Shown: one piece after another, positions 1 to 17,761 of the stretch | Numbering within the stretch: position 1 is the first letter of the stretch | Layout of the letters: each line of letters begins with the position of its first letter | Origin: a virus | UHGV virus genome: UHGV-0060191 | Reading direction: 5' to 3' (one strand) | DNA length: 37,923 bases | Notes under the pieces: model-generated | What the model was told of the DNA's origin: nothing | Database searches by the model: none | The model's input: the letters and a program-made list of their open reading frames with translations, nothing else | Translations under genes and position numbers: made by a program

Positions 1-2189
1 TTCTCTACGGCGTTTGCAACCTTGAAGTACAGCTGCACATCATCAGGTAGAGTTGTGTCTACTATGATGCCTGATTTTGACGGGTCTGTTGTTAAACCTA
101 ATGACGAATTATAAGGCCAGCTCGAGGGTTGTCCGGCTAATGGGGTACCAGCAGGAGTGCCATATAAACCCGCGTTGGTTTGGTTATAATTTGCTGCTGT
201 GGTTGAATATCCCAAGCCGAAATAGTCAACCCCATTTTTTAGCCCTATTGTTATGCCATTCCCCTTGCACCCAGCATTGTTCGCCAAAAGAGCAGCGGAA
301 AGCCTTAACGGAGTCCTAAACCTCATTGCGTCTTGATAAACAATCCAATACTCGGAGTAGTCTGTACCCTCTTCCATAGTAGTGGAGTCTATTACTTTTA
401 TTTCCCAGATATTATCGGTTAAGGCTTGTACAAGTTTGTTATAGCAAGAAGTGTATATGCCTCCGCTGTCTTGTTGTTCACCGGCTTTGAGCCAGCTGGG
501 GTTGTTCGGCTTGAAATTGAAATACTGTCCTGTAAACAACGGCACAGTGTCATTTTCTGTTGTAGTAACATCCACAACATCCGAAGCCGCACTTTGCACT
601 TTTACATTGCCGACTACAATGTACAAAAGTTTCTTTGTTGCATAAGGCTGTACTGTGTCGGAGTTGCCGTAGACGGGGTTGGAAAGTGAAGCGTCAAGGC
701 TCCAATTTCTCATACGTGCTAAGTTTACGCTTCCTTGCCACATAGCACCTGAATGTATAGTATCTATCTTCAGAGCCCCTGTTGCTACGCCTTCTGAAAT
801 ATCAGCGGTCATTGTGCCGGTGATATTCGGCAGCCCGGCTTCTACATAATCGCCTGTTTCGTCAGTGTTTACAGTGTACTGTGAACGTGTGCCTCTGGGT
901 AAAAAGATTCTTTCATTTTCTGTATCTACGCCGTAAAACCACGCCTCACCGCGTTGAGAAAAGATTTCATCAACAGTGGCTTTGTCTGCGATGTCGTAGA
1001 AGATGTGTCCGTTAGGGTTCTTTGTGGCTACCGAGGCACCGCTCCAGATACGCTGGCCGTTGCTTTCTATATAACATTCTTTCAAATCCACAGAGCCTTT
1101 AAATGGGTTGAAGATAGTGACTGCATTATCTTTGCCTGTACCTATAACTGCCTCTTTTATATCGTACAGTTCGTCAACCTGTTTTGTATCATCAAGCAAT
1201 ACCGTGCCATTTGCCAAAGACATAGTCACGTGCAATGTATTATTGGTTTTGGAATAAACTACTTTGACAATATAATCTGTTTCCGGTTGAGCAGATGTTC
1301 CAAAAGGATACTGCCAAACACCAAGGCCACCATTAAAAATTACATTAAGATTATTACTTTCTAAGTTTACTAAACAAAAATAATATTGAGATGGCCCGCT
1401 CGCTGTAGGACATGCAAAAATTTCTTGCTCGCCTGATATGTCAGCGCCTGTTTTGATTTTGAATTGAAAATCAAAATCCTCGTCAGTGGGGAAAGTCAAA
1501 GTGGTTGCATAGCTGCTCGTGCTAAACCCGCTCACCACTCCGTTGTTTACTAAAGGAGAGCCCACTACTTCAACATTGTTTTTCAAAGCCAAAAGAGTGT
1601 TGCCTTCTGTGCTTTTTTGCGCCACGCACTCGTTGTAAAAATCAGGGTAGCCGTAGCGAGAACCGGCAACAGGTTCCTTGTACACGTACGTGCCTAAAAG
1701 CCCGAAGCCCATTGACTCCTCAAAGCTCAAGATGTGGTCTTTTTCTACCACGTCGAAGAGGGAGAAGCCAGAGCCTGCTGTATCTCTTATTACATCTTTA
1801 CCAGCCTCGGTTATGTTTGAAAGGTCTTTGTCGGCATTATTTCCGCCAGGTGTTCCGTTTGTTATCTTTGTGACTCTGCCTTTTTTATCTACTGTAATAC
1901 TATCGGGATAAACATAAGTGTCCTCTGTAACCCCGCTATTCGGGAGTCTTTCGGGGTTTAATATTCCTGACGTTATATTATCAGCATTTGATGCATCAAC
2001 GGATAATAATTTATTATCTGTACCGAGCTTGATACCGTTGTTTTCATCATTTGAAACTAAGTCCTTTATGAAATTCGATATTTTTTCTTTTCTTAACTGG
2101 TTGTGTTGTGAATCTGTAATAACCATAATTTCATCATCATTTGATGATTCTGTTATATCAGGTAATTCACCTACTAGTTGTTTATCCAT
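1..2189 (-). CDS. Tail fibre / receptor-binding protein, 5' part (continues across the origin at 37923; 852 aa total)
   Basis: Not in the ORF track. Hand translation from ATG 2189 (GGAG RBS) gives MDKQLVGELPDITES... open to base 1, with collar/fibre-type motifs GDYVEAGLPNITG and NPVYGNSDTVQP; reads ...VANAVEN|LDMLNAGE into the 37554..37916 frame. Confidence 0.85.
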   Translation of the reverse strand, partial: MDKQLVGELPDITESSNDDEIMVITDSQHNQLRKEKISNFIKDLVSNDENNGIKLGTDNKLLSVDASNADNITSGILNPERLPNSGVTEDTYVYPDSITVDKKGRVTKITNGTPGGNNADKDLSNITEAGKDVIRDTAGSGFSLFDVVEKDHILSFEESMGFGLLGTYVYKEPVAGSRYGYPDFYNECVAQKSTEGNTLLALKNNVEVVGSPLVNNGVVSGFSTSSYATTLTFPTDEDFDFQFKIKTGADISGEQEIFACPTASGPSQYYFCLVNLESNNLNVIFNGGLGVWQYPFGTSAQPETDYIVKVVYSKTNNTLHVTMSLANGTVLLDDTKQVDELYDIKEAVIGTGKDNAVTIFNPFKGSVDLKECYIESNGQRIWSGASVATKNPNGHIFYDIADKATVDEIFSQRGEAWFYGVDTENERIFLPRGTRSQYTVNTDETGDYVEAGLPNITGTMTADISEGVATGALKIDTIHSGAMWQGSVNLARMRNWSLDASLSNPVYGNSDTVQPYATKKLLYIVVGNVKVQSAASDVVDVTTTENDTVPLFTGQYFNFKPNNPSWLKAGEQQDSGGIYTSCYNKLVQALTDNIWEIKVIDSTTMEEGTDYSEYWIVYQDAMRFRTPLRLSAALLANNAGCKGNGITIGLKNGVDYFGLGYSTTAANYNQTNAGLYGTPAGTPLAGQPSSWPYNSSLGLTTDPSKSGIIVDTTLPDDVQLYFKVANAVE

Positions 2190-2235: not shown

Positions 2236-3192
2236 TTATATTGTAGCTTTCGGTTGCAATACAGCGAACGGATAACGTGTGCTGCTTGTTGCGTTTTTAC
2301 GAGTAATTGGGTTAGCAATTTGTACAGCTAATCTCATTACGCAGCGTAATGCTACCATGTCTTGTTGTGCAAGGTTGTATGCAATAGTGCCATCAGTGTT
2401 TTGGATGATAGCCTGGTCTAAGACTTTATATGTCATATCCTGACGTAGAGAATAAACAGCTTTAGTAAAATCGCCTGCAACCATAAGAGCTTTTGTTGCA
2501 TCAAAAACACCTTGGTTGTCATATTCTATTGGTCTACCTATCATTGTAGATGGGACACTTGATGTTAAACTAGGCATATATAAGAGCTGATTGTTTTTAT
2601 CTCTTAAATCTCTAAGTCTGGCCTCCATTGTGCCATCGGCAAAAAATCCGTTCACTCTGTAACCGTCTGACTCGACCAAATCCATAAGTCCGTTTAATCC
2701 TATGATATCTGAGGCCAAGTCTGTATTTGTACCTATTTCAATTTTGTTTTCTGCGGCAATAGCGGCAGGAACGATTGCCTCGGGCCAAGAAGTAGGTTTA
2801 TTTGTACCGTTTAAAATAGCTGCATCAATAGCAACCCCAAATGCTTCTTCAATTTGGGGTCTTAATTCTCCCCATATATCGTAAGAGGAATCATCCAAAA
2901 CAGACTCAGGGATAGGTACAATTACTGCGAGCTCTTCAGCAGTCAAAGTGATTTTATCCCATTCTGAATTTGTTGTTTTTTTCTGGTCTGTGTCACCATT
3001 CAAGAAATATGCGCTCGGCAATGCTGACAAAACAGGTAAGACTCTTTGTTTTGCTGACATATTGGGTAATCTTCTCATTAATGGTAATAGTTTCGAACGT
3101 TGCGGAACATTCTGTATAATTTCTCTGGAATATTCTATAGGAATTAACGCATCTGCGTTAGTACGTGAAATAATGTTTACATCTGTTGCCAT
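2236..3192 (-). CDS. Major capsid protein (HK97 fold)
   Basis: 318 aa with ALIPIEYSREII, LTAEELAVIVPIPESVLDDS and NLAQQDMVALRCVMR; follows the scaffold gene. Confidence 0.93.
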   Translation of the reverse strand: MATDVNIISRTNADALIPIEYSREIIQNVPQRSKLLPLMRRLPNMSAKQRVLPVLSALPSAYFLNGDTDQKKTTNSEWDKITLTAEELAVIVPIPESVLDDSSYDIWGELRPQIEEAFGVAIDAAILNGTNKPTSWPEAIVPAAIAAENKIEIGTNTDLASDIIGLNGLMDLVESDGYRVNGFFADGTMEARLRDLRDKNNQLLYMPSLTSSVPSTMIGRPIEYDNQGVFDATKALMVAGDFTKAVYSLRQDMTYKVLDQAIIQNTDGTIAYNLAQQDMVALRCVMRLAVQIANPITRKNATSSTRYPFAVLQPKATI

Positions 3193-3204: not shown

Positions 3205-3741
3205 TTATCTACCGAGTGCTGCTCTAATTGCATTGTTTGCACCGGCATTTTTTTGTTGAACTGTTTCTGTAGGTTGTGGAACTGCCCCTTTTTTCTTGAG
3301 TTCTTCTGTTTTGAAGCTTTCAAGAGCTGCTTGTACGCTTTCATTAGTTCTTGACTTCAACAAATTTGCAAACTTCTCTGCTTGTATTTTCACGTCTTGT
3401 TCGTCTACAATTTCAATAAACTCATCAGGGTTCAGACCGATTTCTTTAAATGCTTGACGGAATGTTTCTTTACGTTCAAATGTTGCCGCTTGATTTTTGT
3501 AATATTCAAGCTGTTCTTCTGCCGTTTTAGAGGATAATGTCAATTTTTCTTTTTCTTTTAAATATTCTGCAATTTTCCTGTCCTGCCCGGCACGTTCTTT
3601 TTTCAGCATTCCCACTTGAACTTTCATTTCTTCAAGCTGTTTTTCGATGTCATTTCCGCCATCTTGAGGTTGTCCGTCAGTGCCTGCTGTGCCGTTTTGA
3701 ACGTCAGAAGCAGCAACACCGCCGTTTTGTGGTTGTGTCAT
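3205..3741 (-). CDS. Capsid scaffolding protein
   Basis: 178 aa charged coiled coil with low-complexity N-terminus and C-terminal NNAIRAALGR, directly upstream of the capsid gene. Confidence 0.8.
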   Translation of the reverse strand: MTQPQNGGVAASDVQNGTAGTDGQPQDGGNDIEKQLEEMKVQVGMLKKERAGQDRKIAEYLKEKEKLTLSSKTAEEQLEYYKNQAATFERKETFRQAFKEIGLNPDEFIEIVDEQDVKIQAEKFANLLKSRTNESVQAALESFKTEELKKKGAVPQPTETVQQKNAGANNAIRAALGR

Positions 3742-3785
3742 AATTTTCTCTCCTTTGAATATGTTACAAAGCCCTTTTGAAAGGG

Positions 3786-3814
3786 TTTAAATACTTTTTA
3801 AAATAGGGTATAAT
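3786..3814 (+). promoter_or_regulatory. Sigma70-type promoter antisense to the late operon
   Basis: TTTAAA(3786-3791)-17 nt-TATAAT(3809-3814), with no plus-strand ORF downstream. Confidence 0.65.
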
Positions 3815-3820
3815 GTATTT

Positions 3821-3905
3821 GATAGTCTGATACGGTAAATCTCCCATCCGGGCCAACTGGCGACAGAGGGGTGCGGGAGTCCTCATAATCAGGCTATTAT
3901 TTTTT
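3821..3905 (+). ncRNA. Candidate structured small RNA convergent on the MuF-nuclease gene
   Basis: GC-rich island. 11-bp closing stem GATAGTCTGAT/ATCAGGCTATT (two G-U), inner CTCCC/GGGAG and GCC/GGC stems, then a T-run; starts 6 nt after TATAAT. Confidence 0.62.
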
Positions 3906-5222
3906 GCTATGGTTATCAAAATACATTGACAAAAAGTAATTTTCGTTTTTATTTTTAGTAGTTTTTAAAGCTATTAGTAAATTTTGACCATTGATTTTTT
4001 TCTCAATTATTAAATTACCTTTATTAAAATAGCTTTTATCTGCACTGTTTATATAAGAAACAATTTTTTTGTACATTTTAAAACTAATTTCGGGGTGTTT
4101 TGCCTGGTTTTTAACAAAGTTATCAAAAGATAATCTTAATTCGTTAGTGTCACTTCCCAACAAATTCTTAATACTATTGTTGATTTTCCCGCTTACAAAA
4201 TAATGTTTCCTTAATTCTTTATCAAAATTATCTCTTAAATATTCGGTTGTAATTTTGCCAACAGGCATACTATTCCGCAATGCGGTGGCTACACCTTTTG
4301 TTTGCTCATAGAATTGTCTAAAATCAGATACTTTAGCTTTATTTTGCTCTTTAAGTTCTTTTGCGTATTTTGGATTATCTAAGAAAACAACGTATTGTGT
4401 TTCACGGTCATTGATTGCATATTGCGCAGCTGCCTCGCCAAGCTTACAACGTTTGCCGTCAGGATAGAGAAAACGTCCTTTTTCATCGGATATCTGACCG
4501 TTCATCATAGCTGATTGTGTGCGTGTGCGGCTGTCAAGAACAGCAAGAAGCTTTAAGCGTTTGTCATCTCTTTCGACTGCCGAGAAAATCTCGTGAGTTC
4601 TCAATGAAGCCATACGCATTGTTTCTGTTCTTGCAATGCGGTAGGTTTGATATATATGTCCATTTCTGTGAGAAAATTTACCATTTATAATGAGCTCTTT
4701 TGCTTTTGGCGTTATAAGTCCGTCTTTATTTCGAAAGCCCATTATAATATCGATTTTCTTTTGCACTGCCTGAATACTGGAGCCGTTTTCAAAACTTTTT
4801 GCAATAGCTTGTGTTACTTGATTTGCCATAAGCTTTGAACGCTTTAAAACAGATTTTTCTGCAAGTATTCTATTTGTTATCTCAAATGCCTGTGTGTTTG
4901 GTAAAACAGACACAACAGCGGGAATGTATTTTATAGGCTCGCCGAGTGTCTGTGAAGCAAAATCATACTCAATAACCCCACATTCATTGTAATTGTCAAG
5001 TATATTGCCTTTTAAACCAATAAACATTTCATTGTATTTTTTAACAATATAGGCTTCAAGCTCTTTATAAATCTGTTTATCTTCCTTCAACTCTAAAAGC
5101 TTTGAAAAAACATATTTTCTGACCTCTTGAAAATCAGTAATACATTTTGCCTGAGCTTCTGCGATAAGTTCGTTGTACCGTTTTCTCAATGCTTTTAGTT
5201 GTTTAGGGGTCGGTTCTTTCAT
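3897..5222 (-). CDS. MuF/SPP1 gp7-like minor head protein with C-terminal putative BECR-fold (PBECR-like) nuclease domain
   Basis: RIARTETMR and AVLDSRTR MuF motifs, located after the portal; AT-richer C-terminal extension with KHPEI...Y and ALKTTKNKNENYFLSMY. Confidence 0.8.
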   Translation of the reverse strand: MKEPTPKQLKALRKRYNELIAEAQAKCITDFQEVRKYVFSKLLELKEDKQIYKELEAYIVKKYNEMFIGLKGNILDNYNECGVIEYDFASQTLGEPIKYIPAVVSVLPNTQAFEITNRILAEKSVLKRSKLMANQVTQAIAKSFENGSSIQAVQKKIDIIMGFRNKDGLITPKAKELIINGKFSHRNGHIYQTYRIARTETMRMASLRTHEIFSAVERDDKRLKLLAVLDSRTRTQSAMMNGQISDEKGRFLYPDGKRCKLGEAAAQYAINDRETQYVVFLDNPKYAKELKEQNKAKVSDFRQFYEQTKGVATALRNSMPVGKITTEYLRDNFDKELRKHYFVSGKINNSIKNLLGSDTNELRLSFDNFVKNQAKHPEISFKMYKKIVSYINSADKSYFNKGNLIIEKKINGQNLLIALKTTKNKNENYFLSMYFDNHSKK

Positions 5223-6511
5223 CAGATTTCACTTGTTAAAGTTTCGTAGCTTTCTGTTTCAGCTTCTTGCACCAGTTCTTCTGCTTTTTTCTCGTCATAT
5301 CCTGCTTTTATAAATATTTCTTTTTGTGGCAGTTTGCCGCCTGCTGCAAGCATATCTTTTAACCATGTCATTACATCTTTTGGAATATTACGTTTGAAAT
5401 CATAATTTATGTCTTCTGTTGAAAAATCAGCAACGCTCTTTATATCCAAGCCTGTCCAATAGGATTTTAAGAGTCTGTCAAGGTATTCAAGGGATATTTT
5501 CCACTCTGCCTCTGTATCTTTGCAGTCTTCTTCCATATTTCGATACATCTGTGAGATTTGGAAAGCTGTCGCGTTTTGAAGATTTGATACTGCTTCAGGG
5601 TCAACAGATGATGACACAATCCATATACCGGACCAGGTTTTTTGAACAATAAATTTTATAAATTCAGGGTTGATATCTTTGGTAATAAAATGTGCATCTG
5701 CGTCTGCTCCACCTGTAAAGACACCTGATTTTTGCATTTCTGCTTTTATTTTATCATCTATATTCCCCATATTTTTAAGCAGGAGATATGCAGCTCTAAA
5801 AGTTGCTGCTTCTGTAATATTGTCAGATATCAAACGGTCATATGCGTCCATTAAACCAACAGCCAGCTCTGCATTTCCTTGTTTATTGTCATTATTTGAC
5901 CATTCAACAAGGGGAATTCCAATAAAACCGTGTGGCTTTGTTTCAACCAAGACCTGATAAGAATTGCCGCTTTTTGAAGCCAGCCACTCAGTGACATTTA
6001 AAGAATCATATTCCCAAATGTGTCTTCTTTCGTCTATGTCGTAGTATACATAAGCTTTTATCGGTTCATTATCATGGTTATAAACCACTTTACCCTGCCA
6101 CGCAGGAATTTGTTTTATTCTTGCTCTGTTCTGCTCATCAAGATAGCAGAGAGAATATGTGTTGCCCCATCCTGTACAGGAAAACATAAGTCTTTTGAGA
6201 AAACTTTTAAAGTGGTTAAGATTGTCAAACTCTTTGTACTTCTCTTTGACTTCTTCTGCAATACTGTCTGTATAAGTTCTTTGTATGTCTCCTGCAAGGT
6301 ATCCTGATTTAGTTTTTTGAATTACTTGAAAGTTGTTATAAGAAACTCTAATGTTAGGGTCAGAATAAGTTGTTTTTTGTCTTGCAAAAATCGGTACCCC
6401 ATCAGCCATTAAAGCATTATGCCAATCAAAACAGCTTGCGGGTTTATTCTTTGACCTCAAGCTAAGTCGATATTTTAATTCATCATCTTTTAGTAATTCT
6501 TTATCAATCAT
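5222..6511 (-). CDS. Portal protein (SPP1 gp6-like)
   Basis: 429 aa with HGFIGIPLVEWSNN, LMDAYDRLISD, DAHFITKDIN and DINYDFKRNIP. Confidence 0.9.
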   Translation of the reverse strand: MIDKELLKDDELKYRLSLRSKNKPASCFDWHNALMADGVPIFARQKTTYSDPNIRVSYNNFQVIQKTKSGYLAGDIQRTYTDSIAEEVKEKYKEFDNLNHFKSFLKRLMFSCTGWGNTYSLCYLDEQNRARIKQIPAWQGKVVYNHDNEPIKAYVYYDIDERRHIWEYDSLNVTEWLASKSGNSYQVLVETKPHGFIGIPLVEWSNNDNKQGNAELAVGLMDAYDRLISDNITEAATFRAAYLLLKNMGNIDDKIKAEMQKSGVFTGGADADAHFITKDINPEFIKFIVQKTWSGIWIVSSSVDPEAVSNLQNATAFQISQMYRNMEEDCKDTEAEWKISLEYLDRLLKSYWTGLDIKSVADFSTEDINYDFKRNIPKDVMTWLKDMLAAGGKLPQKEIFIKAGYDEKKAEELVQEAETESYETLTSEI

Positions 6512-6512
6512 T

Positions 6513-9245
6513 TTAATAATCCCTACAAGTTATAGTTGCTGTATTATCATCGCTGTATCTGATATCTGTAATTACACAGTCATAGATTGTATCTTGCCCA
6601 AGTGTAAATAAATCTCCATCATAGTGCCATTTATCTTTTAAACCCGTGATTTCTCCTGCACCCTGTATTATGCCGGTATTAGCAACAGGTTCGATTTGAA
6701 CAATGTTTGTACGTCCGGAATTTAAAACATCATAAATGTTAATTACAGGCGACTCTGTTGTGTAATCCAATGACCTTATAATAATTTTGGCATTTTCTGG
6801 GATTTCTATATCCGAATAAAGTGTAAACCCTGTCATATTTCCGTTTTTTGTTATGACAGACTTTATAAGACCTGTGCTTTCATTTTGCATATTTGCACTA
6901 TTGCAAACATACACACGGTCAAGCATTGTCATATTTAAAGCCTCAAGGTTTACAGAAAATTCAAAATTGTTTCTTTTGGCCTGTGTACAAAGTAGTTCAT
7001 AGCTTATAGATTTTAGTACACTTGCTTTGTCTGTAATGTACTTGAGGTCTTTTTTTACAAGCAGATAGTCAGAATCTGTTGTTCCTTCTTTGATTTCTTC
7101 ATGTACTGCACCGTCATACCAGTAAACGGTTACTTCGTCTTGTGTATAGTCTTCAGAGTTAGTAAAACTTGCTCTGATTGCTTCTGTTAATCGTCCCAAA
7201 TTTGGTGTCCAGCTAAAATTCCAGGAATTATGCTGGTTAAACATACCTTTAGGTGTTTTTTCACTTCCGTCTATAGCAAATGTGTGCTTCCCGTTTAAAA
7301 GCGGAATCATGGCACCCTGACAATTTTTTAATATTTCATTTATAACATCCATTGTTTTAGTGGCTTCAGATACGATGCCATCTGCTTTGTATTCTTGCTC
7401 TTCGCACCAGTTGTAAAGCATAACCAGGCTGTCATTATCAATTAAATCAGTGCTTATAGGACGAGGATTCACTAATTCATCTGTCAACAGATAGCGAATA
7501 ATAGCAGCGGGATTTTTACTTTCCTGAACTGTAGACCAGTCTTCGCCGTTCCAAACGGGTATTCTTGCCTCCGCTACATAGTTAAACTTTTTAATTGTTC
7601 CTGACAGGCCTTTATAAGCTGTTGCTTCAAATGCAATTTGATTAACTTTAGGCAGAATGCTTTCATCAAGTACTTTCCCTTCAACATAAAATTGCACCTC
7701 TGCACAGCGAGGATAGCCTATATCAAAGTTTGTTTTATCTGCATAATCTGCTGAACGTACACGCACGGTATATTTGCCTGTTTCAGGTAAAGTAAATCCG
7801 ATAGGTCTGTAAAAAAGCTGGTCAGCTACGTTTATATCTGACGGGCTATTTACTTTGACATTTGCACCGTTTACTGTCGTGCTGGATGTGCTTAATGGTT
7901 GCTTTTCACCGTTGATGTCTCTGATATAAAGTTCCGTATTTTCTGATAACGGAATATATTCCCCATCACCTTTTTTATACATTATCTCTATTTCAGAAGT
8001 ACGGGCAGAACGTGAGCCATCGTTATTTTGATGAAACAATCCTTGAGGAAAGCTTATTATTACATCAATTTCTTTTGTATTTTCGGGGCTTGTAAGTACT
8101 ACCTCTGACACAGTGCCTGCGTATCTGTTGATAGACAGGTTTAAAGTTTCATTACGGTTCAATGTCTGGGTAACCATATTTTCAGAAACATAGAGTGAGT
8201 CCAGTTCATTTGTTGATTCTGTTGAGTTTCCTCTTGTATTGCTTAAAGGGGCATAGTTTGTAAAAACTATCTCTGTATAATTATCATCATCCGCATCATA
8301 TTTAACCGAGCCGTTATAGATATATGTATTTTCATTAACAAGAGTAAGCATTGAAGAGGTGATTGTTATATCATTAGTTAAATCAACATAATTGCCTTTT
8401 TGAACCACTCTTGTTGTCTGTCTGAACTGTTTATTAGTCCAGGCGTTTAAGTCTACATTTATAAATTTGAGCTGATAATTAACCGTAACAAAGTTGGTGT
8501 TTGTCAGTTCGTTATAATCAAAATGGGCATTTTGATTTACTTCTTCATCGGGGTTGTATGACAACTCTTCATCTATGCTCATTGCTTTTACGTTATCAAA
8601 ACCTATAAAATTAGACGAGCCGCTTGCGGTTATTATATCTAAATAGTCAATAGAATAATCTGTACGTGGTGTATCTCCCAGTTTAAAATCAGAATATACT
8701 ACATTTTTATAATTAGAAACAAAATACTGTCTGTATTTGTTCGTTGAAGCACCGTCAACGACCAGTCTGTACGGCTGCTGTCCATATGAAGGTGTTTGTT
8801 GTATTTTCCCAAACAAAACAGGAAGGCATCCGCTTGAGATATCATTGCTAGCCCCTCTAAGCTCCGGCTGCGTACTTGAGCTGTATTCTTTAGCCTGAGT
8901 TGTACCACTATGGCCACCGCCTGAAAATATAGATATTGCACCTGCGGCAACTACACCTGCTGCCAACGAAACAGCAGCTATACCTGTAACAATAGCGGCA
9001 GTTGCTGAAAAAGCACCAGCACCAAGTGTAACTAATATAGTTGCACCTATAATCTCAAATATGCCGTTTGGTCTTTCTATGACTTCTACAATATCACTAT
9101 TTTTGAGTATATGCCACGGTTTAAGCGGTTTACCGTTAATGTATGCATTTTTATAGTTTCTAAAATGAAAAAAAGCAAAATGCCAGTCCCATTTATGAAA
9201 GCTTAAAGTCTTTTTATCAAGATTTCGTCTTATTACTCTTATCAT
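6513..9245 (-). CDS. Tail tip / baseplate hub protein (lambda gpI+gpJ-like)
   Basis: 910 aa. N-terminal small domain plus Gly/Ala hydrophobic stretch (gpI-like); LPVLFGK, IDVIISFPQGL and SKNPAAIIRYLLT are gpJ-type motifs. Confidence 0.82.
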   Translation of the reverse strand: MIRVIRRNLDKKTLSFHKWDWHFAFFHFRNYKNAYINGKPLKPWHILKNSDIVEVIERPNGIFEIIGATILVTLGAGAFSATAAIVTGIAAVSLAAGVVAAGAISIFSGGGHSGTTQAKEYSSSTQPELRGASNDISSGCLPVLFGKIQQTPSYGQQPYRLVVDGASTNKYRQYFVSNYKNVVYSDFKLGDTPRTDYSIDYLDIITASGSSNFIGFDNVKAMSIDEELSYNPDEEVNQNAHFDYNELTNTNFVTVNYQLKFINVDLNAWTNKQFRQTTRVVQKGNYVDLTNDITITSSMLTLVNENTYIYNGSVKYDADDDNYTEIVFTNYAPLSNTRGNSTESTNELDSLYVSENMVTQTLNRNETLNLSINRYAGTVSEVVLTSPENTKEIDVIISFPQGLFHQNNDGSRSARTSEIEIMYKKGDGEYIPLSENTELYIRDINGEKQPLSTSSTTVNGANVKVNSPSDINVADQLFYRPIGFTLPETGKYTVRVRSADYADKTNFDIGYPRCAEVQFYVEGKVLDESILPKVNQIAFEATAYKGLSGTIKKFNYVAEARIPVWNGEDWSTVQESKNPAAIIRYLLTDELVNPRPISTDLIDNDSLVMLYNWCEEQEYKADGIVSEATKTMDVINEILKNCQGAMIPLLNGKHTFAIDGSEKTPKGMFNQHNSWNFSWTPNLGRLTEAIRASFTNSEDYTQDEVTVYWYDGAVHEEIKEGTTDSDYLLVKKDLKYITDKASVLKSISYELLCTQAKRNNFEFSVNLEALNMTMLDRVYVCNSANMQNESTGLIKSVITKNGNMTGFTLYSDIEIPENAKIIIRSLDYTTESPVINIYDVLNSGRTNIVQIEPVANTGIIQGAGEITGLKDKWHYDGDLFTLGQDTIYDCVITDIRYSDDNTATITCRDY

Positions 9246-9262
9246 TTTAAAGCCAAAATATT

Positions 9263-9595
9263 TTAAACAATAACCTCATAAAACGTTGCATATCTGGGAA
9301 TTGGACTTATTTTAACTCCCTGATTAATTGTTTTATGGATGTACTCTTTTTCGTTGATTGCATACCCTATATGCTCTATACTGCCAACACTGACATGTAC
9401 TGCAACCCCTTTTTTAGGTTTGTCTACAGTTTTGTGTTTGATATTGCTTCTTACAAAGCTTTCCTCATCTTCAAAAATCGGAATATCAGGTAAAATAATC
9501 CCGTGTTCGTCTTTGTAGATATCTTGCAATAATGTCCAGCAGTCATTTTTAAACTTTTGGTACTTGCCATTTTTGAAATATTTTAAATAATCCAT
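9263..9595 (-). CDS. NlpC/P60 tail-tip protein (gpK-like, no JAB domain)
   Basis: DCWTL...HIGY...YIH Cys-His-His triad, positioned before gpJ. Confidence 0.82.
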   Translation of the reverse strand: MDYLKYFKNGKYQKFKNDCWTLLQDIYKDEHGIILPDIPIFEDEESFVRSNIKHKTVDKPKKGVAVHVSVGSIEHIGYAINEKEYIHKTINQGVKISPIPRYATFYEVIV

Positions 9596-9605
9596 TTGCC
9601 CTCAC

Positions 9606-9634
9606 TTGACAAACCTATCAACATGACAAATAAT
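9606..9634 (+). promoter_or_regulatory. Promoter of antisense RNA, type I TA copy 1
   Basis: TTGACA(9606-9611)-17 nt-AATAAT(9629-9634); same boxes and spacing at 35742-35770. Confidence 0.75.
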
Positions 9635-9639
9635 ATTGG

Positions 9640-9753
9640 TATAGGGGCAAGCCCCAAAGAATCACTACTTCTTCGGAGCTTGACTTCACCCCCTACAGAT
9701 AAAGAATAATAATTTTTAAAGCTGCTATAATTGCCGTTATAGCGGCTTTTATT
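9640..9753 (+). ncRNA. Candidate type I antitoxin RNA, copy 1
   Basis: Runs from the promoter to a terminator hairpin AAAGCTGCTATAA/TTATAGCGGCTTT (9718-9749); antisense to the peptide ORF; ends approximate. Confidence 0.7.
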
Positions 9754-9767
9754 ATTCGATTATCCAT
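9693..9767 (-). CDS. 24-aa hydrophobic peptide, candidate type I toxin copy 1 (MDNRIIKAAITAIIAALKIIILYL)
   Basis: Strong SD AGGGGGTGA; same length and hydrophobic pattern as the paralogue at 35829..35903. Confidence 0.78.
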   Translation of the reverse strand: MDNRIIKAAITAIIAALKIIILYL

Positions 9768-9845
9768 AGTATCACCCCCTTTCAGCCATTTTCTCCACTA
9801 AATGAGTGTGCTGAGGGAGTGTTGGTTTACCCTGTATAAATATTA

Positions 9846-10316
9846 CTATAAAAACAGGTTAGGAAATGTTTGTCTGTAATAGTTAATAGTACTCATATTC
9901 ACATCAAGGTTGTGTCTGATATTTATTGTTGCTGTTATACTTTCAGGGGTTATTTGTGCTTCAAATATTTCGAATAATCCTGCTGGATATTTTTCAGCTG
10001 CTTCTGTTTCGATATTGACTATGTATAAATCAAGCAATATATTTTCATTTGAATTTATTGTTTTTCTTATCTCGTTAGCTGCAAGATTTTGAATATTTGA
10101 TAAAACGAGCTGTGTCCCCTGTGTTTCCGTCTGAGAAGGCAGGATGATGTCAAAGGGATAAGGCTGGTATATTTTGCCGTCAAGCTCCAGTGTTTTGGTG
10201 TCGTTTATAAAACAAAACGACTCTTGAAACGCACTGTGTTTAAGTTCAATAAGCATTTTGAGAGCTCGTCCGAGATACCTCGAGTATGAGTTTTTATCCA
10301 GTTCAAAACGATTCAT
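9846..10316 (-). CDS. Minor tail protein (DUF1833 / gpL-like)
   Basis: LIELKHS, FINDTKTLELDGKIYQPYPFDIILP and C-terminal TFPNLF; lies between the Dit-like and NlpC genes. Confidence 0.75.
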   Translation of the reverse strand: MNRFELDKNSYSRYLGRALKMLIELKHSAFQESFCFINDTKTLELDGKIYQPYPFDIILPSQTETQGTQLVLSNIQNLAANEIRKTINSNENILLDLYIVNIETEAAEKYPAGLFEIFEAQITPESITATINIRHNLDVNMSTINYYRQTFPNLFL

Positions 10317-10747
10317 AACGACCGCCTTGCTTGTGTCGTAAGATATTTGCCGTTTGCTACAATAGGCAGCTGATAATTTGCAGCAAGCACTCTGTCTAAA
10401 TAGAAAACCTCGCTATCAAACATTAAGGTTACATTTGTATTCCAGTATCTTGAGTTAGGGTTCCATTTAGGCTTGCCAGTGATTCTTGCAATACGTTCCT
10501 CGCCTATTCTGCAATCCATGATTTTAAACGGTATTGAGCCTTGCTTTGTATCGTATTTATACCAACTCATAAAGTCGATATATTTCTGTCTTTCAAGCGT
10601 AAAAACACACTGCACAATATCCTGTATATCTGTAAAACGTTCACGTCTATACGGAATACCTGCATCAGGAGTGACCTCAATATATCCTTCCTGAAATTCG
10701 TTCTGGAAACCGTCAAGCTTTATCTTTCCCCATTTCCACTTTTCCAT
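10313..10747 (-). CDS. Distal tail protein (gpM/Dit-like)
   Basis: Directly after tape measure; PDAGIPYRRERFT and FMSWYKYDTKQGSIPF. Confidence 0.7.
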   Translation of the reverse strand: MEKWKWGKIKLDGFQNEFQEGYIEVTPDAGIPYRRERFTDIQDIVQCVFTLERQKYIDFMSWYKYDTKQGSIPFKIMDCRIGEERIARITGKPKWNPNSRYWNTNVTLMFDSEVFYLDRVLAANYQLPIVANGKYLTTQARRSL

Positions 10748-13700
10748 TATGAAGCTTGAACTCCTCTTGAATTGTTACGTTGTAATGCTGATGAAAACCC
10801 GCTTTGTGTACGTTCGTTTCTCAATGCATTGTTTACTTTCCTGATGAATATTTCAGTGTCCCCGTCAGGTCTTTGTACAGTTTCAACACTTGCTCCTGAT
10901 TGGTTATAAATAGTAATATTAGGCTGTTGAACCTGTGCTTCAACTCCCAGTCTGCCGTCAGGAGTTCTTCTCAACGGCATAATAGCCTCTGTGCCCGCTT
11001 CACCCATTAAACCCATTCTGTTACCCTTCATAGGGAAATAGGTAGGCTTGTCAACGATACCGCCGTCAGCAAAGGCAGTAACCCTGCTTGCAAGCATTCC
11101 TGCGCTGGCTAATATGTTGGCAGTACCAATAGCGGCACCCGTCGCTGTCGCTGCTACCGGGGCAAGAACTGCACCTGCTATCGGAACTAATGCAGCCGAA
11201 TATGCAGCTTGTGCAATGGCTGCTTGTGTTAATGAAGCTGCTAATTGTCCTGCTGCTGTTGCTGCACTTGCATAACCGCTCATTGCACTTGCTATAACTC
11301 CTGATGTACCGCTCATTGCAGTAAGAGCTGCTGTTTGAGATGTGCCAATACTGGCTATACTAGCAGCTGCTTGAGGTGCTTGAGCCAAGATGTTTTTAAG
11401 TTCGTCACTGACTGCGGATATCGGAGCAGCTGCACCTGTCATTGTTCCTTGATTACCGCCAAGGATATTTGACAAAAGTCCGCCGTTTTGTGCACCTTCC
11501 TGAAATAGTTTGCTCAATCCTGATGATATCATTTGCTGAGCAATGGCTTGAATGGTGTTTAAAGCAACATTCCCGAAACGCTCGAGCGCATTCTCGCCTT
11601 GTTGTAAGGGAGTGGTGATAGCCTGTGAGAGGCTTGAAGATATGGTGCTTGAAATGTTGCTCCATGATAAGCCTACTGAATTTTGCAAAGAAGCTTGTGC
11701 TTTGTTTATTTGGTTTTGGTACTGAATAGCAAGGTTTTTAAGCTGAATTGCTGCCCGTGAGTTGCCTTGACCTTGAATAGCCAAATCCAAATATTGAGAT
11801 TGGATTCGACTTAAAGCATTTTGCTTTGCCTGAAATGGGCTTGTGATAGCAGCGCTTTTGACTTCTTCCGCTTTGTTTTGCAGTTTTGTCAATTCTTCTT
11901 TTGCGAGGTTTAAATCGTCAAGATTGACAATTTTAGCAGCGGCAAGATTGTTGACTTTTTCTTGTGCCGTTTGGATTTCAGCGTTAAGAGCCTGAAAAGG
12001 AGGCAGTACGTTCAAGTCGGTAGCTTGCTTTACTTTATCAAGTGCATTTGTAAGTTTGTTAACTTTTTGAACTTGATTATCCCAGACTTTGCCGCTTGTA
12101 ATGCCCTGTGCTGCAAGGTCGTTCAGCATTTCTTTTGCTTTTGCGGCCGCTTCGTTTAACTGAGCATATGGGCCTTTAACTTTCTCCGACTTTTTGCTGT
12201 CGTCACTGCTACCGCCAAGATTGCTGGTACTGGCTCCGAGTGAGTAATTCGAGTTATTATTATTTAAATTTTTAAGCCGTTTTTCTACATCTTTTCTTGT
12301 TTCAATTAATTTACGTATTGATTTTGTTGATTCATCATAAGCATTTGCCTCGGCTTCATATCTTTGAATATTAATTTGTCTTTGACGGTGTTGAAAAAAA
12401 GGTCCAGACATTAAAATAGCGGTTTTTTGTCTTGCTTTATATAATAATTCTTCTTTCTGAATAGCTTTGTTTAATTCTTCTGTCATTACGCTAATAGCAG
12501 AAGTTCTCTCAATTTCCGCTCTTATTAAACCTGATGTGGTATCCGACAGTTGTCCGTTTAATTTTAATTCCTGAGTTATTTGTCCGATATATGTCGGATA
12601 TTTCGAAGAAAGTTCGGTTATTATGGCTTTTAACTTATTAGTTTCATTAATAGTTAATTTTTTACTATTAAGTAATTTTGAATATTCTTGTAATTGTGAT
12701 GCAATTTTATTGGTTTCATCACTGTATGCCATTGATACTTTAACTGATGCCGATGAAAAATAGTTCACAAAAGATTGTGTTGCAATAGTAGCTTGTGTTA
12801 GATTTTGGACTAATTTCTGTGTTGCAGGCGTTAATATACTTCCCGCTGTATTGCCTAAATCAAACATTGCAGTGTTAAGTCTGTTAAGATCAGCTCTTAA
12901 TTGTGTAGAAGCGTCCAATGCACTTCCACCTAGCTCTTCTTTAAGAGCACTAGCAAAAGCAGGCAAAAATTCAGAAGATAAAACCTTTCCCTCTGATACC
13001 ATATTATAAAACTCACGGGTAGTCATTCCCATGGATTTTGCTGCGATTTCAAATGCACCTGGTAGATGGTCGCCTAGCTGTTGACGAAGCTCTTCCATTG
13101 AAACAGTGCCTTTGCCTGCAATCTGCTCTAATGCTTTAAAAGTTAATTCAACATTCGTTGCCGGCAATTGCATAGATGTAGCGGCAGTTGAAATATCACT
13201 AAATATTTGTTTTGTTTGTCCAAGTGTTAAGCCGCTTCTTAAAGCAGCAGCTTCGAAGCCTGCGAAGCTGTCAGCGGTGCCCTTGAAAGATAGTCCTAAT
13301 CTGTCTGCTTCTTTTCTGATATATGATAAGCTATCAGCCCCTACTGATTTATTGCCTGCTGCTGCATTCATTCGGTTTTCGAGTGCCTGAAAATCCATTG
13401 ATGTATTAACAGCAGATTTGCCCAGTTCTGCAAGCCTTGTAGAAATATAACCTATGCTGAATCCTGCTACAACATTATTTAAATTCAAAATAGAGGAGCC
13501 TAGCTCTTTAAATCCAGTCGCTTTGTTTACAATATTGTTTGCACTGGACATTTGCATTTGTGCATTACGCACAGTCTGAGCAAGTTTTTGAAATTCAACG
13601 CTGTTTTGCTTTCCTTGCAAAGCTAAATTTCTTAGTCTGTCTGTAGCAGCTGTTGTAACAGAGTTCAGCTGGTTGTAACCAATACCGCTTTTTTGTGCAT

Positions 13701-13932
13701 TAGCAAGTTTTTGATAAGACAAAATATTTGCATTTATTGTGTTTTGTTGTTCCTTTAATTTTGTGCGAATTTTGTCATAAACAGGTAAAGATGAATTTGC
13801 CGTCCCCTCTACTCTTTGCAAAACACGTTCATATTTGTCCGTCATTTTGCCTAATTGGTCAAAATCTCGTGATACTTTTGCAGCGTTTGAATCTATGTTT
13901 ATTATTACTTTGCCGTCTTGGTTTGACATCAT
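10747..13932 (-). CDS. Tail tape measure protein
   Basis: 1061 aa, Ala/Gln-rich and helical; QIAGKGTVSMEELRQQLGDHLPGA tape-measure domain; C-terminal FADGG...GLMGEAGTEAIMPL. Confidence 0.95.
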   Translation of the reverse strand: MMSNQDGKVIINIDSNAAKVSRDFDQLGKMTDKYERVLQRVEGTANSSLPVYDKIRTKLKEQQNTINANILSYQKLANAQKSGIGYNQLNSVTTAATDRLRNLALQGKQNSVEFQKLAQTVRNAQMQMSSANNIVNKATGFKELGSSILNLNNVVAGFSIGYISTRLAELGKSAVNTSMDFQALENRMNAAAGNKSVGADSLSYIRKEADRLGLSFKGTADSFAGFEAAALRSGLTLGQTKQIFSDISTAATSMQLPATNVELTFKALEQIAGKGTVSMEELRQQLGDHLPGAFEIAAKSMGMTTREFYNMVSEGKVLSSEFLPAFASALKEELGGSALDASTQLRADLNRLNTAMFDLGNTAGSILTPATQKLVQNLTQATIATQSFVNYFSSASVKVSMAYSDETNKIASQLQEYSKLLNSKKLTINETNKLKAIITELSSKYPTYIGQITQELKLNGQLSDTTSGLIRAEIERTSAISVMTEELNKAIQKEELLYKARQKTAILMSGPFFQHRQRQINIQRYEAEANAYDESTKSIRKLIETRKDVEKRLKNLNNNNSNYSLGASTSNLGGSSDDSKKSEKVKGPYAQLNEAAAKAKEMLNDLAAQGITSGKVWDNQVQKVNKLTNALDKVKQATDLNVLPPFQALNAEIQTAQEKVNNLAAAKIVNLDDLNLAKEELTKLQNKAEEVKSAAITSPFQAKQNALSRIQSQYLDLAIQGQGNSRAAIQLKNLAIQYQNQINKAQASLQNSVGLSWSNISSTISSSLSQAITTPLQQGENALERFGNVALNTIQAIAQQMISSGLSKLFQEGAQNGGLLSNILGGNQGTMTGAAAPISAVSDELKNILAQAPQAAASIASIGTSQTAALTAMSGTSGVIASAMSGYASAATAAGQLAASLTQAAIAQAAYSAALVPIAGAVLAPVAATATGAAIGTANILASAGMLASRVTAFADGGIVDKPTYFPMKGNRMGLMGEAGTEAIMPLRRTPDGRLGVEAQVQQPNITIYNQSGASVETVQRPDGDTEIFIRKVNNALRNERTQSGFSSALQRNNSRGVQAS

Positions 13933-13975
13933 TACCTCTGTTTTGTAAAATTCATGTATTGTTGAAGGAGTAGTT

Positions 13976-14287
13976 ATGACTTATTGTAAAAACTGTGGTT
14001 GCCAAATTAATGAACCTGCAAAATTTTGTCAGGAATGTGGGAAACCTTTAGATAAAAAAATAAACAAATGGATTGCTATTGTACTTCTTTTATTGTTTGG
14101 TTATTTAGGTTTGCATAAATTTTATTTAGGCTCAAACAAAACAGGCTTTTTGTTTTTAACTGGTGGGATTATTGCAATATTTGTTTATTTATTAAACTTA
14201 CCACCTTTAACATTGATTCCTTCATTAATTTTGGGGTGTGCATTACTTGTTGATTTGGTACTGCTTCTTATAAAAGAAAGGATTTAA
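13976..14287 (+). CDS. Zinc-ribbon + TM2-domain membrane protein (possible superinfection exclusion)
   Basis: YCKNCG...FCQECG and LFGYLGLHKFYLG TM2 motif; GGAG RBS; opposite strand to the tail operon. Confidence 0.85.
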   Translation: MTYCKNCGCQINEPAKFCQECGKPLDKKINKWIAIVLLLLFGYLGLHKFYLGSNKTGFLFLTGGIIAIFVYLLNLPPLTLIPSLILGCALLVDLVLLLIKERI

Positions 14288-14290
14288 GAC

Positions 14291-14812
14291 ATGTTTAATT
14301 TTATTAGACAATTTTTGAAAAGAACAATAAATGGAAGTGCTAAAAAAAAGATTATTGACAAACAACCTAATGTATTAAACCTTATAAACAAAATACAAAA
14401 TGATTATCTACACAAATCAGAGAAAACAAAAACTTTGATTAATAATAATAGCTTTGAAAATATACAAATAGAAAAACTACAAGAATTAAATACTAAAGAT
14501 GCAATTGTAATTAATTCATACTATTTTTATTTAATAGGAATATTTAGAGATTTATATGAATTTAGAAACAATAGAATAGCACTAGAGAAACTTATATTTA
14601 TTAATGAAATTCTATATAATAATTTAGATTTTTTTAAACAATCTTTACAAGAATTTGAATATATTCAGAACAAAGCATATAACGATGTCTTAAATCAGAA
14701 TAAAACTATTGATTTAATAAAAAAAGAAGCAAATGATTCCTTTAACAAAATAAAATTTGATCACATTTTGAACAATAGAGAAAAATTAAAATATTTAGAA
14801 AAGACTCTATAA
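14291..14812 (+). CDS. Hypothetical accessory protein
   Basis: 173-aa very AT-rich ORF starting 3 nt after the TM2 gene. Confidence 0.7.
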   Translation: MFNFIRQFLKRTINGSAKKKIIDKQPNVLNLINKIQNDYLHKSEKTKTLINNNSFENIQIEKLQELNTKDAIVINSYYFYLIGIFRDLYEFRNNRIALEKLIFINEILYNNLDFFKQSLQEFEYIQNKAYNDVLNQNKTIDLIKKEANDSFNKIKFDHILNNREKLKYLEKTL

Positions 14813-14879
14813 CATACACTTCCGCAGCATTAGAGTCTATGTTTATTATTGCCCTGCTGATTTATGCAGGTTTAACACC

Positions 14880-14908
14880 TTGACATCTGTAACCAAGTTG
14901 GTTACAAT
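14880..14908 (+). promoter_or_regulatory. higBA promoter with palindromic operator
   Basis: TTGACA-17-TACAAT overlapped by the perfect inverted repeat TGTAACCAA-G-TTGGTTACA (14888-14906). Confidence 0.85.
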
Positions 14909-14914
14909 GATAAT

Positions 14915-15193
14915 ATGATTAAATCCTTCAAACATAAAGGTTTAGAAAAGTTTTATCTTACAGGTTCAAAAAGCGGTATTCAAGAAAAACACGCTCAACG
15001 ATTAAGAGTTATATTAAACAGACTTAACCTTATGACAGATATTAAAGATATTGATTTGCCGAATCTGAATCTACATAAATTAAAAGGCGATTTAAAAGAC
15101 CACTGGTCATTAAAAGTAAATGGCAACTGGCGCATAACCTTTAAGTTTGAGGATGAAGATGTTTATATAGTTGATTATCAAGATTATCATTAA
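14915..15193 (+). CDS. higB: HigB (RelE-family) toxin
   Basis: MIKSFKHKGLEKFY...LHKLKGD...WSLKVNGNWRITF...VDYQDYH. Confidence 0.95.
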   Translation: MIKSFKHKGLEKFYLTGSKSGIQEKHAQRLRVILNRLNLMTDIKDIDLPNLNLHKLKGDLKDHWSLKVNGNWRITFKFEDEDVYIVDYQDYH

Positions 15194-15205
15194 AGAGGTA
15201 TAAAA

Positions 15206-15487
15206 ATGGAAATGTTCAATCCGCCGCATCCAGGCGAAACAATCAAAGAATTATATATGAATGATTACAATTTAACGATTGCCAAACTTGCTTTAATGCT
15301 TGGTATCAGTAGAAAACATTTATCTAATATCGTTAATTGTAAAGTGCCTATTTCAACAGAAGTAGCGTTAAAGCTTGCAAAGTGCTTTAAAACTTCTCCT
15401 GAAATATGGTTGAGAGAACAGCTTGCTTATGATTTATGGAATGCGAAACAAACGGTTAAACTTGATGATGTTCAAGAAGCTTTTTAA
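15206..15487 (+). CDS. higA: HigA HTH antitoxin
   Basis: NPPHPGE...HTH...SPEIWLREQLAYDLW, downstream of higB. Confidence 0.95.
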   Translation: MEMFNPPHPGETIKELYMNDYNLTIAKLALMLGISRKHLSNIVNCKVPISTEVALKLAKCFKTSPEIWLREQLAYDLWNAKQTVKLDDVQEAF

Positions 15488-15498
15488 CATTTGATTAA

Positions 15499-15780
15499 CT
15501 ATAGCACTCTGTTCTCTGCAAAATCAACCTCAATCAAGTATCTTATTCCGACTGCTTTCTCATAAGGAAGAGAGGCTATTTTGAGCAGCCCTGCCCTGTG
15601 CCATCTCCATAGCTCTAAAATATCGTAAAAATCACTGTCCAGATTAGCCCAAAGGTCTTTTTTCTTGCCAATGGCTGTAGGTCTTTTGACATCACCGAGG
15701 AAGATGAGCTTGTCATCTCCCCAGGCTGTCGTGTTAAAATCCCCTGTTTTGTATATCTCCCAGGCTATTTTTACTTTTTT
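15499..15780 (-). CDS. Tail assembly chaperone frameshift extension (gpT-like)
   Basis: The -1 frame entered from the slippery site at 15774-15780 reads KVKIAWEIYKTGD...; no convincing start of its own. Confidence 0.75.
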   Translation of the reverse strand, partial: KKVKIAWEIYKTGDFNTTAWGDDKLIFLGDVKRPTAIGKKKDLWANLDSDFYDILELWRWHRAGLLKIASLPYEKAVGIRYLIEVDFAENRVL

Positions 15781-16118: not shown

Positions 16119-16121
16119 TTA

Positions 16122-16784: not shown

Positions 16785-16802
16785 TAGTTTAATCTCCTTT
16801 GA

Positions 16803-17598: not shown

Positions 17599-17761
17599 TT
17601 TCCTTAAACTCTTGGTTGTAATAGTCTTGTGTAACTAAAATCTGATACGGAGTACCTTCACAGCTTGATTCACTGTGTATCTCTTCACGGGTTAAAAATG
17701 TTTTCCCAAAAAGCTTCCAGTTTTTGATATTTGTATATGTTGTGTTTTGTGTTGATGACAT
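17582..17761 (-). CDS. 59-aa hypothetical protein (MSSTQNTTYTNIKNWKLFGKTFL...)
   Basis: Below the ORF-track cutoff; fills the gap exactly and is TAATG-coupled to the upstream gene. Confidence 0.7.
   Translation of the reverse strand: MSSTQNTTYTNIKNWKLFGKTFLTREEIHSESSCEGTPYQILVTQDYYNQEFKENGKQS

Follow-up and report, generated by a model that had tools for sequence, protein, structure and literature searches.

A conserved pseudoknotted RNA gene convergent with a MuF-fused, PBECR3-like predicted RNase domain: a candidate RNA antidote in a temperate phage and in Gastranaerophilales genomes

Introduction

How is a ribonuclease (RNase) carried on a phage head tolerated by the cell that makes it, when its gene is followed by no immunity gene? 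The question is raised by virus genome UHGV-0060191, of which a stretch of 37,923 nucleotides (nt), here called the window, was analysed. In this phage a MuF-like head protein ends in a predicted RNase domain of the PBECR3 type, and the gap behind its gene holds, on the opposite strand, a small gene for a structured RNA. A first-pass annotation, made from the letters of the sequence and its open reading frames (ORFs), had proposed this RNA as an antitoxin or cofactor of a virion-associated nuclease; comparison with relatives partly supports that proposal, and favours an antidote.

Sequence analyses have recorded PBECR RNases, fused to MuF or otherwise, since 2017; their role and their toleration by the producer are unsettled, and small immunity proteins are what published surveys take for granted. 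For PBECR domains joined to MuF, an RNase function and injection along with the phage DNA have been predicted (Iyer et al. 2017, PMC5512222), and small ORFs have been reported after 89.4% of 191 MuF toxin genes (Jamet et al. 2017, PMC5576092). RNA partners of toxins are also on record: type III antitoxins are described as non-coding RNAs that bind and block an RNase (PMC8860590, PMC5772629, PMC13682666), and in a Clostridioides difficile prophage the structured non-coding RNA RCd22, of the abiF motif, has been reported to neutralise a phage-encoded toxin by direct contact, acting in cis and likewise in trans (PMC12373285). For BECR or PBECR RNases, a full-text literature search returned no description of an RNA partner in the passages retrieved.

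The RNA gene and its conserved structure

The gap between the MuF-like ORF and the next ORF of the minus strand covers 3742-3896 (155 base pairs, bp), and the small RNA gene (about 80 nt; 3819-3906, plus strand) is recognised here by a covariance model with a score of 109.6 bits. Its closing helix P1 pairs 3820-3831 with 3888-3899 over 12 bp, of which eleven form the stem 3820-3830/3889-3899 that had been predicted together with its plus-strand G-U pairs (G3821-U3898 and U3826-G3893), while the twelfth, U3831-A3888, is an addition. The other plus-strand elements are the P2 helix (CUCCC 3841-3845 with GGGAG 3875-3879), the P3 hairpin (GCC 3852-3854 with GGC 3859-3861, loop AACU) and a pseudoknot, in which GAGG at 3866-3869 pairs with CCUC at 3881-3884. 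The terminator run of six U at 3900-3905 reads, on the other strand, as the last two lysine codons of MuF; the MuF stop codon is the complement of 3897-3899, and the RNA and the coding sequence (CDS) overlap by about 10 nt. Upstream lies a sigma-70-type promoter of the plus strand (TTTAAA-17-TATAAT, 3786-3814). All the elements listed in the first-pass annotation (the 155-bp gap, the promoter, the unit of about 80 nt, its stems, the pseudoknot and the U-run at the MuF stop) were located as it had described them.

Promoter-like sites are not enriched in the region (9 found, 8.1 expected), so the window promoter means little when taken alone. The prediction of an opposite-strand promoter gains its weight from the relatives: TTGnnn/TTTAAA-16..18-TAnnnT stands at the equivalent place in 64 of 76 distinct copies, and a T-run of at least four follows the RNA in 71 of the 76. 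Likewise, it is comparative evidence, not single-sequence folding, that sets the element apart from chance, the folding of the plus strand being not significant (-28.8 kcal/mol, z -1.80, equalled by 5 of 200 shuffles; minus strand, -22.7 kcal/mol).

This evidence comes from a covariance model, R1, built from 22 sequences, and from structure statistics on 46 matches aligned to it. Standard pairs fill 96.8% of 1073 cells, against 77.5% in shuffles, in an alignment fitted to the nested helices, which favours them, and with the pseudoknot outside the model. Both sides have changed in a compensatory manner at 19 of the 24 pairs, none of 500 shuffles reached any of the five measures used, and pairing falls to only 35.7-52.6% when the 3' partners are slid by 1-3 columns. 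In P1, such double changes are found in all 12 pairs (95.9% of cells paired), in P2 in three of five (CUCGA/UCGAG, CUUGC/GCAAG and CUGGA/UCCAG; 98.3% paired) and in P3 in two of three. The GAGG/CCTC pairing, suggested in the first pass as a possible pseudoknot, shows compensatory changes as well: both sides differ in two of its four pairs (GUGG/CCAC in 7 sequences, AAGG/CCUU in 2), 98.9% of its cells are paired, and in some copies it reaches 5 bp (GGAGG/CCUCC, GGUGG/CCACC, GAGGG/CCCUC). Near-invariant unpaired stretches are UACGGUAAAUCU, ACCG, GACAG and AUAA, and GGUAAAUCU is an invariant stretch of the RNA that groups with the last three.

The functional strand is the one opposite to the protein gene, since the G-U pairs (63 of the 1073 cells) would be mismatches on the other strand, and since promoter and T-run occur together on the plus strand in 62 of the 76 distinct copies. 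Moreover, in phage contigs whose MuF proteins are 67% and 45% identical to that of the window, the element is almost unchanged, lies at the same place and carries compensatory stem changes. The RNA core keeps 42-51 of its 54 bases while the domain drops to 32% amino-acid identity and the MuF backbone becomes unrecognisable, which points to a constraint on the RNA itself. Co-evolution of RNA and protein subtypes was also looked for, and no simple pattern emerged.

The view that the gap holds no immunity gene was upheld. The only ORF that crosses the element (3764-3919, minus strand, 51 amino acids (aa), TTG start) was considered as a candidate and rejected: a conserved frame across the RNA is ruled out by a core that measures 53, 54, 55, 57 or 58 nt in relatives and by the compensatory changes. 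The reverse strand is open over the core in 55 of 62 distinct copies because the copies are near-identical in sequence. Rfam 15 gave no match at gathering scores in the whole window, and only chance-level matches (E 2.2-8.5), none spanning the element, in 3700-3960; a search of the window for tRNA and tmRNA genes found none.

Association of the RNA with the RNase domain

Searches of sequence collections that started from either partner give very strong support to a tie between the RNA and the nuclease domain. From the protein side, 13 PBECR3-like genes were picked up by a profile of the domain, in 10 of 151 genomes of one order; one of them is cut by a contig end. At 11 of the 12 testable genes the stop codon is met, tail-to-tail, by a strong R1 match, while that of the twelfth is weak (19.3 bits, E 0.0028) but of the right place and shape. 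Three further long MuF genes, from a set of 400 genomes, all have the RNA, which is also found beside the long MuF gene of GenBank phage PP511318.1 (locus L096). At short-MuF control loci it was found in none of seven; six of these have readable ORFs, of 284-311 aa, and in five of the six the next gene follows within 75 nt. The seven are the only controls lacking the domain, because sister phages of the LPD13 type (P0075), sought as a comparator, yielded no such locus in the viral contigs or the 400 genomes.

PP511318.1 is a 35.8-kb record whose genes include those for terminase, portal, MuF and capsid; it has been placed under Microviridae, and its RNA gene (2930-3018, minus strand) is annotated as the CDS of a hypothetical protein of 38 aa (2950-3066).

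The 20-base core of the RNA occurs in 19 species-level genomes, nearly all of them metagenome-assembled genomes of Gastranaerophilales or Melainabacteria, each time with a TTGAAA-type promoter and a stem of differing sequence. At 11 of these 19 loci a homologue of the domain is convergent with the RNA and ends at it, with 30-43% identity except in L046 (about 99%), which is a near-identical copy of the window phage. At ten of the 11, neither the N-terminal part of the window MuF nor its portal or capsid was detected. Most of the 11 domain genes are free-standing and encode 136-149 aa (136-176 aa over all free-standing genes), and in L037 the domain is fused to a different, Pfam-positive type of MuF. 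The module of RNA and domain is thus met with at least three MuF backbones, and also without any MuF.

Starting from the RNA, a degenerate pattern led to 69 metagenome loci and one new viral locus. Seven of the 70 were set aside as chance matches, being G+C-rich and without the flanking stem. The other 63, from metagenomes, are real (46 distinct): a convergent domain gene accompanies the RNA at 45 of them (32 distinct), four are cut off by contig ends, and 14 (10 distinct) have none. The distance from the end of the model to that of the ORF is -12 to +5 nt at most of the loci measured. R1 matches are present in 21 of the 151 genomes of the order, some of which hold three or four; a phylum-wide sample of 151 genomes gave nine with matches, all already in the order sample, and the RNA was not found elsewhere among the genomes searched. 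The conserved, covarying structure proposed in the first pass as a check is present beside homologous domains in phages, prophages and chromosomes, and all the computational checks named there turned out favourable to its proposal.

The MuF-like protein and its C-terminal domain

Residues 1-295 of the 441-aa protein (4338-5222, minus strand) form a MuF-like head-morphogenesis part, for which the Pfam match to Phage_Mu_F is weak (19.1 bits, under the cutoff of 29.6) and that to a PHROG head morphogenesis family reaches E 2.6e-6; the relatives in L037 and L072 match Phage_Mu_F clearly, with 75 and 90.4 bits. Residues 296-441 and the stop codon (3897-4337, minus strand) make up the PBECR3-like predicted RNase domain of BECR fold. 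A C-terminal extension had been predicted, and it is present; its length is about 146 aa and not about 120 aa, as judged from homologues without extension, which measure 282-311 aa and end where the N-terminal part ends. The N-terminal part of about 290 residues also has homologues of 439-452 aa with a PBECR3-like extension, of 417 aa with LPD13 and of 517 aa with an ADP-ribosyltransferase, and this occurrence without extension or with different C-terminal domains makes a pattern of swappable C-terminal cassettes.

When the domain is scanned alone, it matches Pfam PBECR3 (PF18812) with 30.8 bits (E 3.1e-7, cutoff 30). PBECR3 is matched, at E up to 0.01, by 9 of 14 aligned homologues, and the best standalone gene reaches 32.7 bits. 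An AlphaFold model of the domain, made from a 14-row alignment, has a mean predicted local distance difference test score (pLDDT) of 95.0 and a predicted template modelling score of 0.88. A structure search with it against 48,161 solved chains put BrnT at the top (Z 6.5, root-mean-square deviation 2.7, 74 residues aligned), followed by two CdiA-CT tRNases (Z 5.5 and 5.4), a Salmonella toxin (Z 5.0) and colicin D (Z 4.6), and then by toxins of the RelE, ParE, YoeB and HigB types; ranks 1-24 are all bacterial RNase or toxin-antitoxin toxin chains. A PDB search by the sequence of the domain gave nothing meaningful (best E 0.06).

The C-terminal domain is BECR-like on the strength of this model and of the profile match, as the first-pass annotation had suspected; the assignment rests on the agreement between the profile match (PBECR3, 30.8 bits) and the matches, at modest Z scores, of the confidently modelled fold (pLDDT 95) to RNase toxins, neither being relied on alone. 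Six residues are invariant in 14 homologues (S70, K76, N77, H81, K125 and T127 in domain numbering), among which K76, H81 and T127 fit the catalytic Lys/His of the helix that precedes the sheet and the C-terminal Thr/Ser as described in PMC5512222 and in a 2026 BECR preprint, the comparison being one by description. The domain would be an active, toxic RNase.

Function of the RNA

The reading favoured here, to which a probability of about one half is given, is that the RNA serves as an antitoxin or immunity factor of the RNase, type III-like in its action and outside the ToxIN-type families. The RNA would be transcribed from its own host-type promoter, in lysogens as well as during infection, expression in the lysogen being possible because the phage is temperate. 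It would fold into its pseudoknotted form and occupy the RNase, its invariant single-stranded bases probably filling the active site in the manner of a pseudo-substrate. In this way it would cover the MuF fusion until packaging and keep both the producer and the lysogen safe, and cells with the RNA alone would be shielded from RNase that comes in with the DNA of a related phage. The main reason for preferring an antidote to a cofactor is an asymmetry: the RNA without the protein is common, and no testable protein gene lacks the RNA, as would fit a pair in which the toxin can be lost with the antidote kept, but not the reverse.

Several results weigh against this reading. The data from RNA libraries (four runs) consist of strandless Logan contigs with patchy cover over the whole 2-kb stretch, which would fit DNA and speaks neither for transcription nor against it. 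The presence of the RNA at 12 of 12 enzyme genes is equally expected of a dedicated substrate or cofactor, and RNA subtype does not simply track protein subtype. As regards the enzyme, the whole 441-aa protein scores 28.6 bits with PBECR3, just under the cutoff of 30, and the Z scores of the fold matches (4.6-6.5) are modest, values below 8 being able to reflect no more than a common arrangement. A toxin mRNA reading past its stop codon would be perfectly complementary to the RNA, given the tail-to-tail overlap of the genes, so that an antisense effect may coexist with the antidote. Finally, copies of the motif occur with no RNase gene nearby, paired up behind an HTH gene, heading a longer RNA or arrayed with other structured units, and its role may for this reason exceed immunity; these contexts fit either a broader role of the motif or collections of protective RNAs.

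The same overlap is the starting point of a type I-like explanation, in which the RNA acts in cis as an antisense RNA: it would pair with the 3' end or 3' untranslated region of the toxin or late-operon mRNA, and cleavage or interference between the convergent transcriptions would limit production of the RNase. The arrangement suits it, since convergence with overlap at the stop codon is seen in the window and in relatives and leaves no room for a separate terminator of the toxin gene between stop codon and RNA. Type I pairs of Bacillus overlap at their 3' ends too, and enzyme toxins with small-RNA antitoxins exist (RalR/RalA). But complementarity by construction needs no invariant unpaired bases, no covarying pseudoknot and no G-U pairs valid on one strand; orphan and embedded copies have no antisense target nearby; and the phage has its toxin as the C-terminal portion of a structural protein, encoded within a long late operon. 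On balance such a mechanism is regarded as rather unlikely to be the main one. Another possibility is that the domain is not mainly a toxin and binds or processes the RNA as its dedicated substrate, cofactor or guide in a ribonucleoprotein with a different task, for example inside the virion or as infection begins. For injected proteins with PBECR domains, roles of these domains in binding or targeting RNA have indeed been proposed (Iyer et al. 2017, PMC5512222), the RNA is beside all testable protein genes, and the invariant protein residues are those of the predicted active site. What makes this account unlikely is that orphan RNAs with intact promoters are kept and orphan protein genes were not found, an asymmetry that an antidote predicts and a cofactor does not, and that the two-gene modules sit several to a genome in varied places, like toxin-antitoxin pairs.

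An element independent of the RNase, be it riboswitch-like, self-processing or an elaborate two-way terminator, whose adjacency would come from shared mobility, is judged very improbable. A core made of a junction and a pseudoknot with invariant unpaired bases does resemble aptamers and small ribozymes, and the tandem copies of the motif, its place at the head of a longer RNA and its arrays with other structured units would be natural for it; yet distance and orientation are fixed (12 of 12) across varied contexts and a protein divergence to about 30% identity, a search of Rfam up to E 10 turns up no riboswitch or ribozyme family, and a conserved core is more than a plain terminator requires. 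The closing stem, with its 11-12 bp, is besides long for a switching helix.

Comparison with known systems

The type III systems (ToxIN, CptIN and TenpIN) resemble the present pair, as far as the sources cited above describe them, in the combination of an endoribonuclease with an adjacent pseudoknotted RNA and in their links to phages, and the action proposed for the RNA is the same as theirs. They differ in layout: their RNA consists of tandem repeats upstream of the toxin, in one operon with it, and is processed by the toxin, whereas here a single copy is convergent with the domain and has its own promoter and terminator. The window holds one model match, on the opposite strand and downstream of the toxin domain, and relatives do likewise. 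The toxins differ as well, being ToxN-like there and BECR/PBECR3-like here, where they can be part of a virion protein.

AbiF/RCd22, in the account given in PMC12373285, likewise joins a structured RNA without repeats to a phage-encoded toxin gene; there, however, the toxin is of the Abi_2/AbiD/F type, the abiF-motif RNA lies upstream of the toxin gene and function has been shown, while here it is proposed. The MuF polymorphic toxins (PMC5576092) and PBECR polyvalent proteins (PMC5512222) are described as sharing the MuF head protein (here MuF-like), the swappable C-terminal toxin domain and the temperate phage; the toxin gene is in most cases followed there by a small immunity ORF, and here that slot is taken by an RNA gene, the sole ORF across the gap of the window having no conserved frame.

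Type I pairs such as txpA/RatA and bsrG/SR4, from Bacillus subtilis, consist of convergent genes with an overlap at the 3' ends; their toxins are small membrane peptides, and their RNAs base-pair and are without such a conserved pseudoknotted core. The likeness to them is in the convergence of toxin and small-RNA genes with overlapping 3' ends, and the difference is in the toxin: no small hydrophobic peptide is found here, but a soluble RNase-like domain, of 136-176 aa or fused to MuF. The RNA is a new family, in a new architecture, within a known kind of system, that of the RNA partners of RNase toxins.

If the favoured reading of the RNA as an antidote is true, an RNA in the slot of the immunity gene would add both a new RNA family and a new toxin fold to the biology of RNA antitoxins, in a convergent single-copy design unlike that of ToxIN-type systems. 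It would also suggest that immunity to virion-delivered toxins may be carried by tiny RNA genes that annotation pipelines miss, as in PP511318.1. With a toxin of about 140 aa and an RNA of about 80 nt the pair is compact, and it would open a first way into the conflict between phage and host in the Gastranaerophilales, a gut lineage that is uncultured.

Orphan copies and other contexts of the motif

The free-standing modules occur several to a genome, at varied chromosomal places beside housekeeping genes. An orphan class of the RNA, with intact promoter and fold, recurs in several species-level genomes beside a HigB-like/helix-turn-helix (HTH) pair and tRNA-Leu genes. In L041 (3135-3816), and at the same place in L033, L039 and L044, the orphan RNA stands back-to-back with a HigB-like toxin gene (PF05015, E 8e-17) and an HTH gene, near genes for tRNA-Leu(GAG) or tRNA-Leu(CAG). 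Mimicry of the neighbouring tRNA-Leu, or pairing with it, was considered and dropped, the alignment scores of 10-15 being at or under the shuffle medians of 14.

Furthermore, standalone PBECR3-like genes beside intact RNAs look broken or shortened in L052 (1033-1416), L079/L094, L035 and L042, the reading frame ending early after KTT, being interrupted by TAA stops or measuring no more than 90-93 aa; to judge from these sequences, the toxin appears to decay at such loci while the RNA persists.

Tandem copies have been found in two settings. In L061 and L078 (1310-1690), two copies of the motif directly follow a small XRE-type HTH gene, within its 3' untranslated region and ahead of a terminator, near a gene with an NYN (RNase-like) domain; in L146 (391-1700) the same NYN and HTH genes are followed by a single copy with a promoter. 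In the viral contig L101, two tandem copies stand beside tail genes of the P2 type.

In addition, the motif, with a shorter stem and no U-run, heads a modular RNA of 300-500 nt in L028, L066 and others. The loci of this longer RNA in Gastranaerophilales are L066 (minus strand, about 1480-1850), L028, L069, L077, L136, L139, L152 and L161; it has a conserved TTGACA...GATAAT promoter, and its 3' end is a conserved GCGATAGC...GCTATCGC hairpin. In L073 (1300-1600), and also in L074, two tandem repeats of another structured unit, G+C-rich and about 95 nt long, precede one copy of the motif and a terminator, forming an array of unlike RNAs. Neither the longer RNAs containing the motif nor the units of the arrays matched Rfam.

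Taken together, these contexts allow a wider and more tentative reading, which is possible rather than probable: a new class of RNA immunity, in which a pseudoknotted RNA would disarm a head-carried, injected RNase of BECR fold, and which would be used by phages, free modules and hosts, the last keeping orphan, tandem or arrayed copies under strong promoters as immunity islands against RNases of incoming phages. As part of the same tentative reading, and by analogy, such islands might correspond, at the level of RNA, to the orphan immunity genes that polymorphic toxin systems have.

The phage and its gene neighbourhood

The window is a complete temperate tailed phage. The virus record has 37,978 bp with direct terminal repeats, of which the window comprises all except 55 bases. 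A serine integrase (32744-34486) and a repressor-like HTH gene (29979-30530) mark the phage as temperate, and the other genes include those for a RecE-like exonuclease, a DnaB-like helicase, terminase, tape measure and endolysin. A GenBank DNA search found no close phage relatives, and one made with the gap gave a 40-nt chance match as its sole hit.

Every gene around the RNA locus is on the minus strand: portal (5222-6511), the MuF-like gene (3897-5222, between portal and capsid), a putative scaffold gene (3205-3741, a 178-aa ORF) and major capsid (2236-3192). The scaffold label of the first-pass annotation agrees with the position of the ORF between the MuF and capsid genes and comes from that position only; Pfam and PHROG searches gave no family match behind it. 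A short G+C hairpin at 3769-3788, terminator-like in appearance, overlaps the -35 box of the RNA promoter and lies upstream of the ribosome-binding site of the scaffold gene; similar hairpins are found in L010 and L011.

The order of the structural genes (5222-20133, minus strand) is unusual, terminase (18967-20133), neck, tape measure and tail genes coming before portal, MuF, scaffold and capsid. The gene directly upstream of the portal gene encodes a 910-aa protein with a GpJ FNIII-A match, and the capsid gene is followed by a 729-aa ORF (3-2189) without any family match. Midway through the structural region, the opposite strand (14915-15487, plus strand) carries a gene for a HigB/RelE-like toxin of 92 aa (PHROG 'toxin of TA system', E 7.3e-34) and, after it, an HTH antitoxin-like gene of 93 aa, so that the phage has a second, protein-based RNase toxin module.

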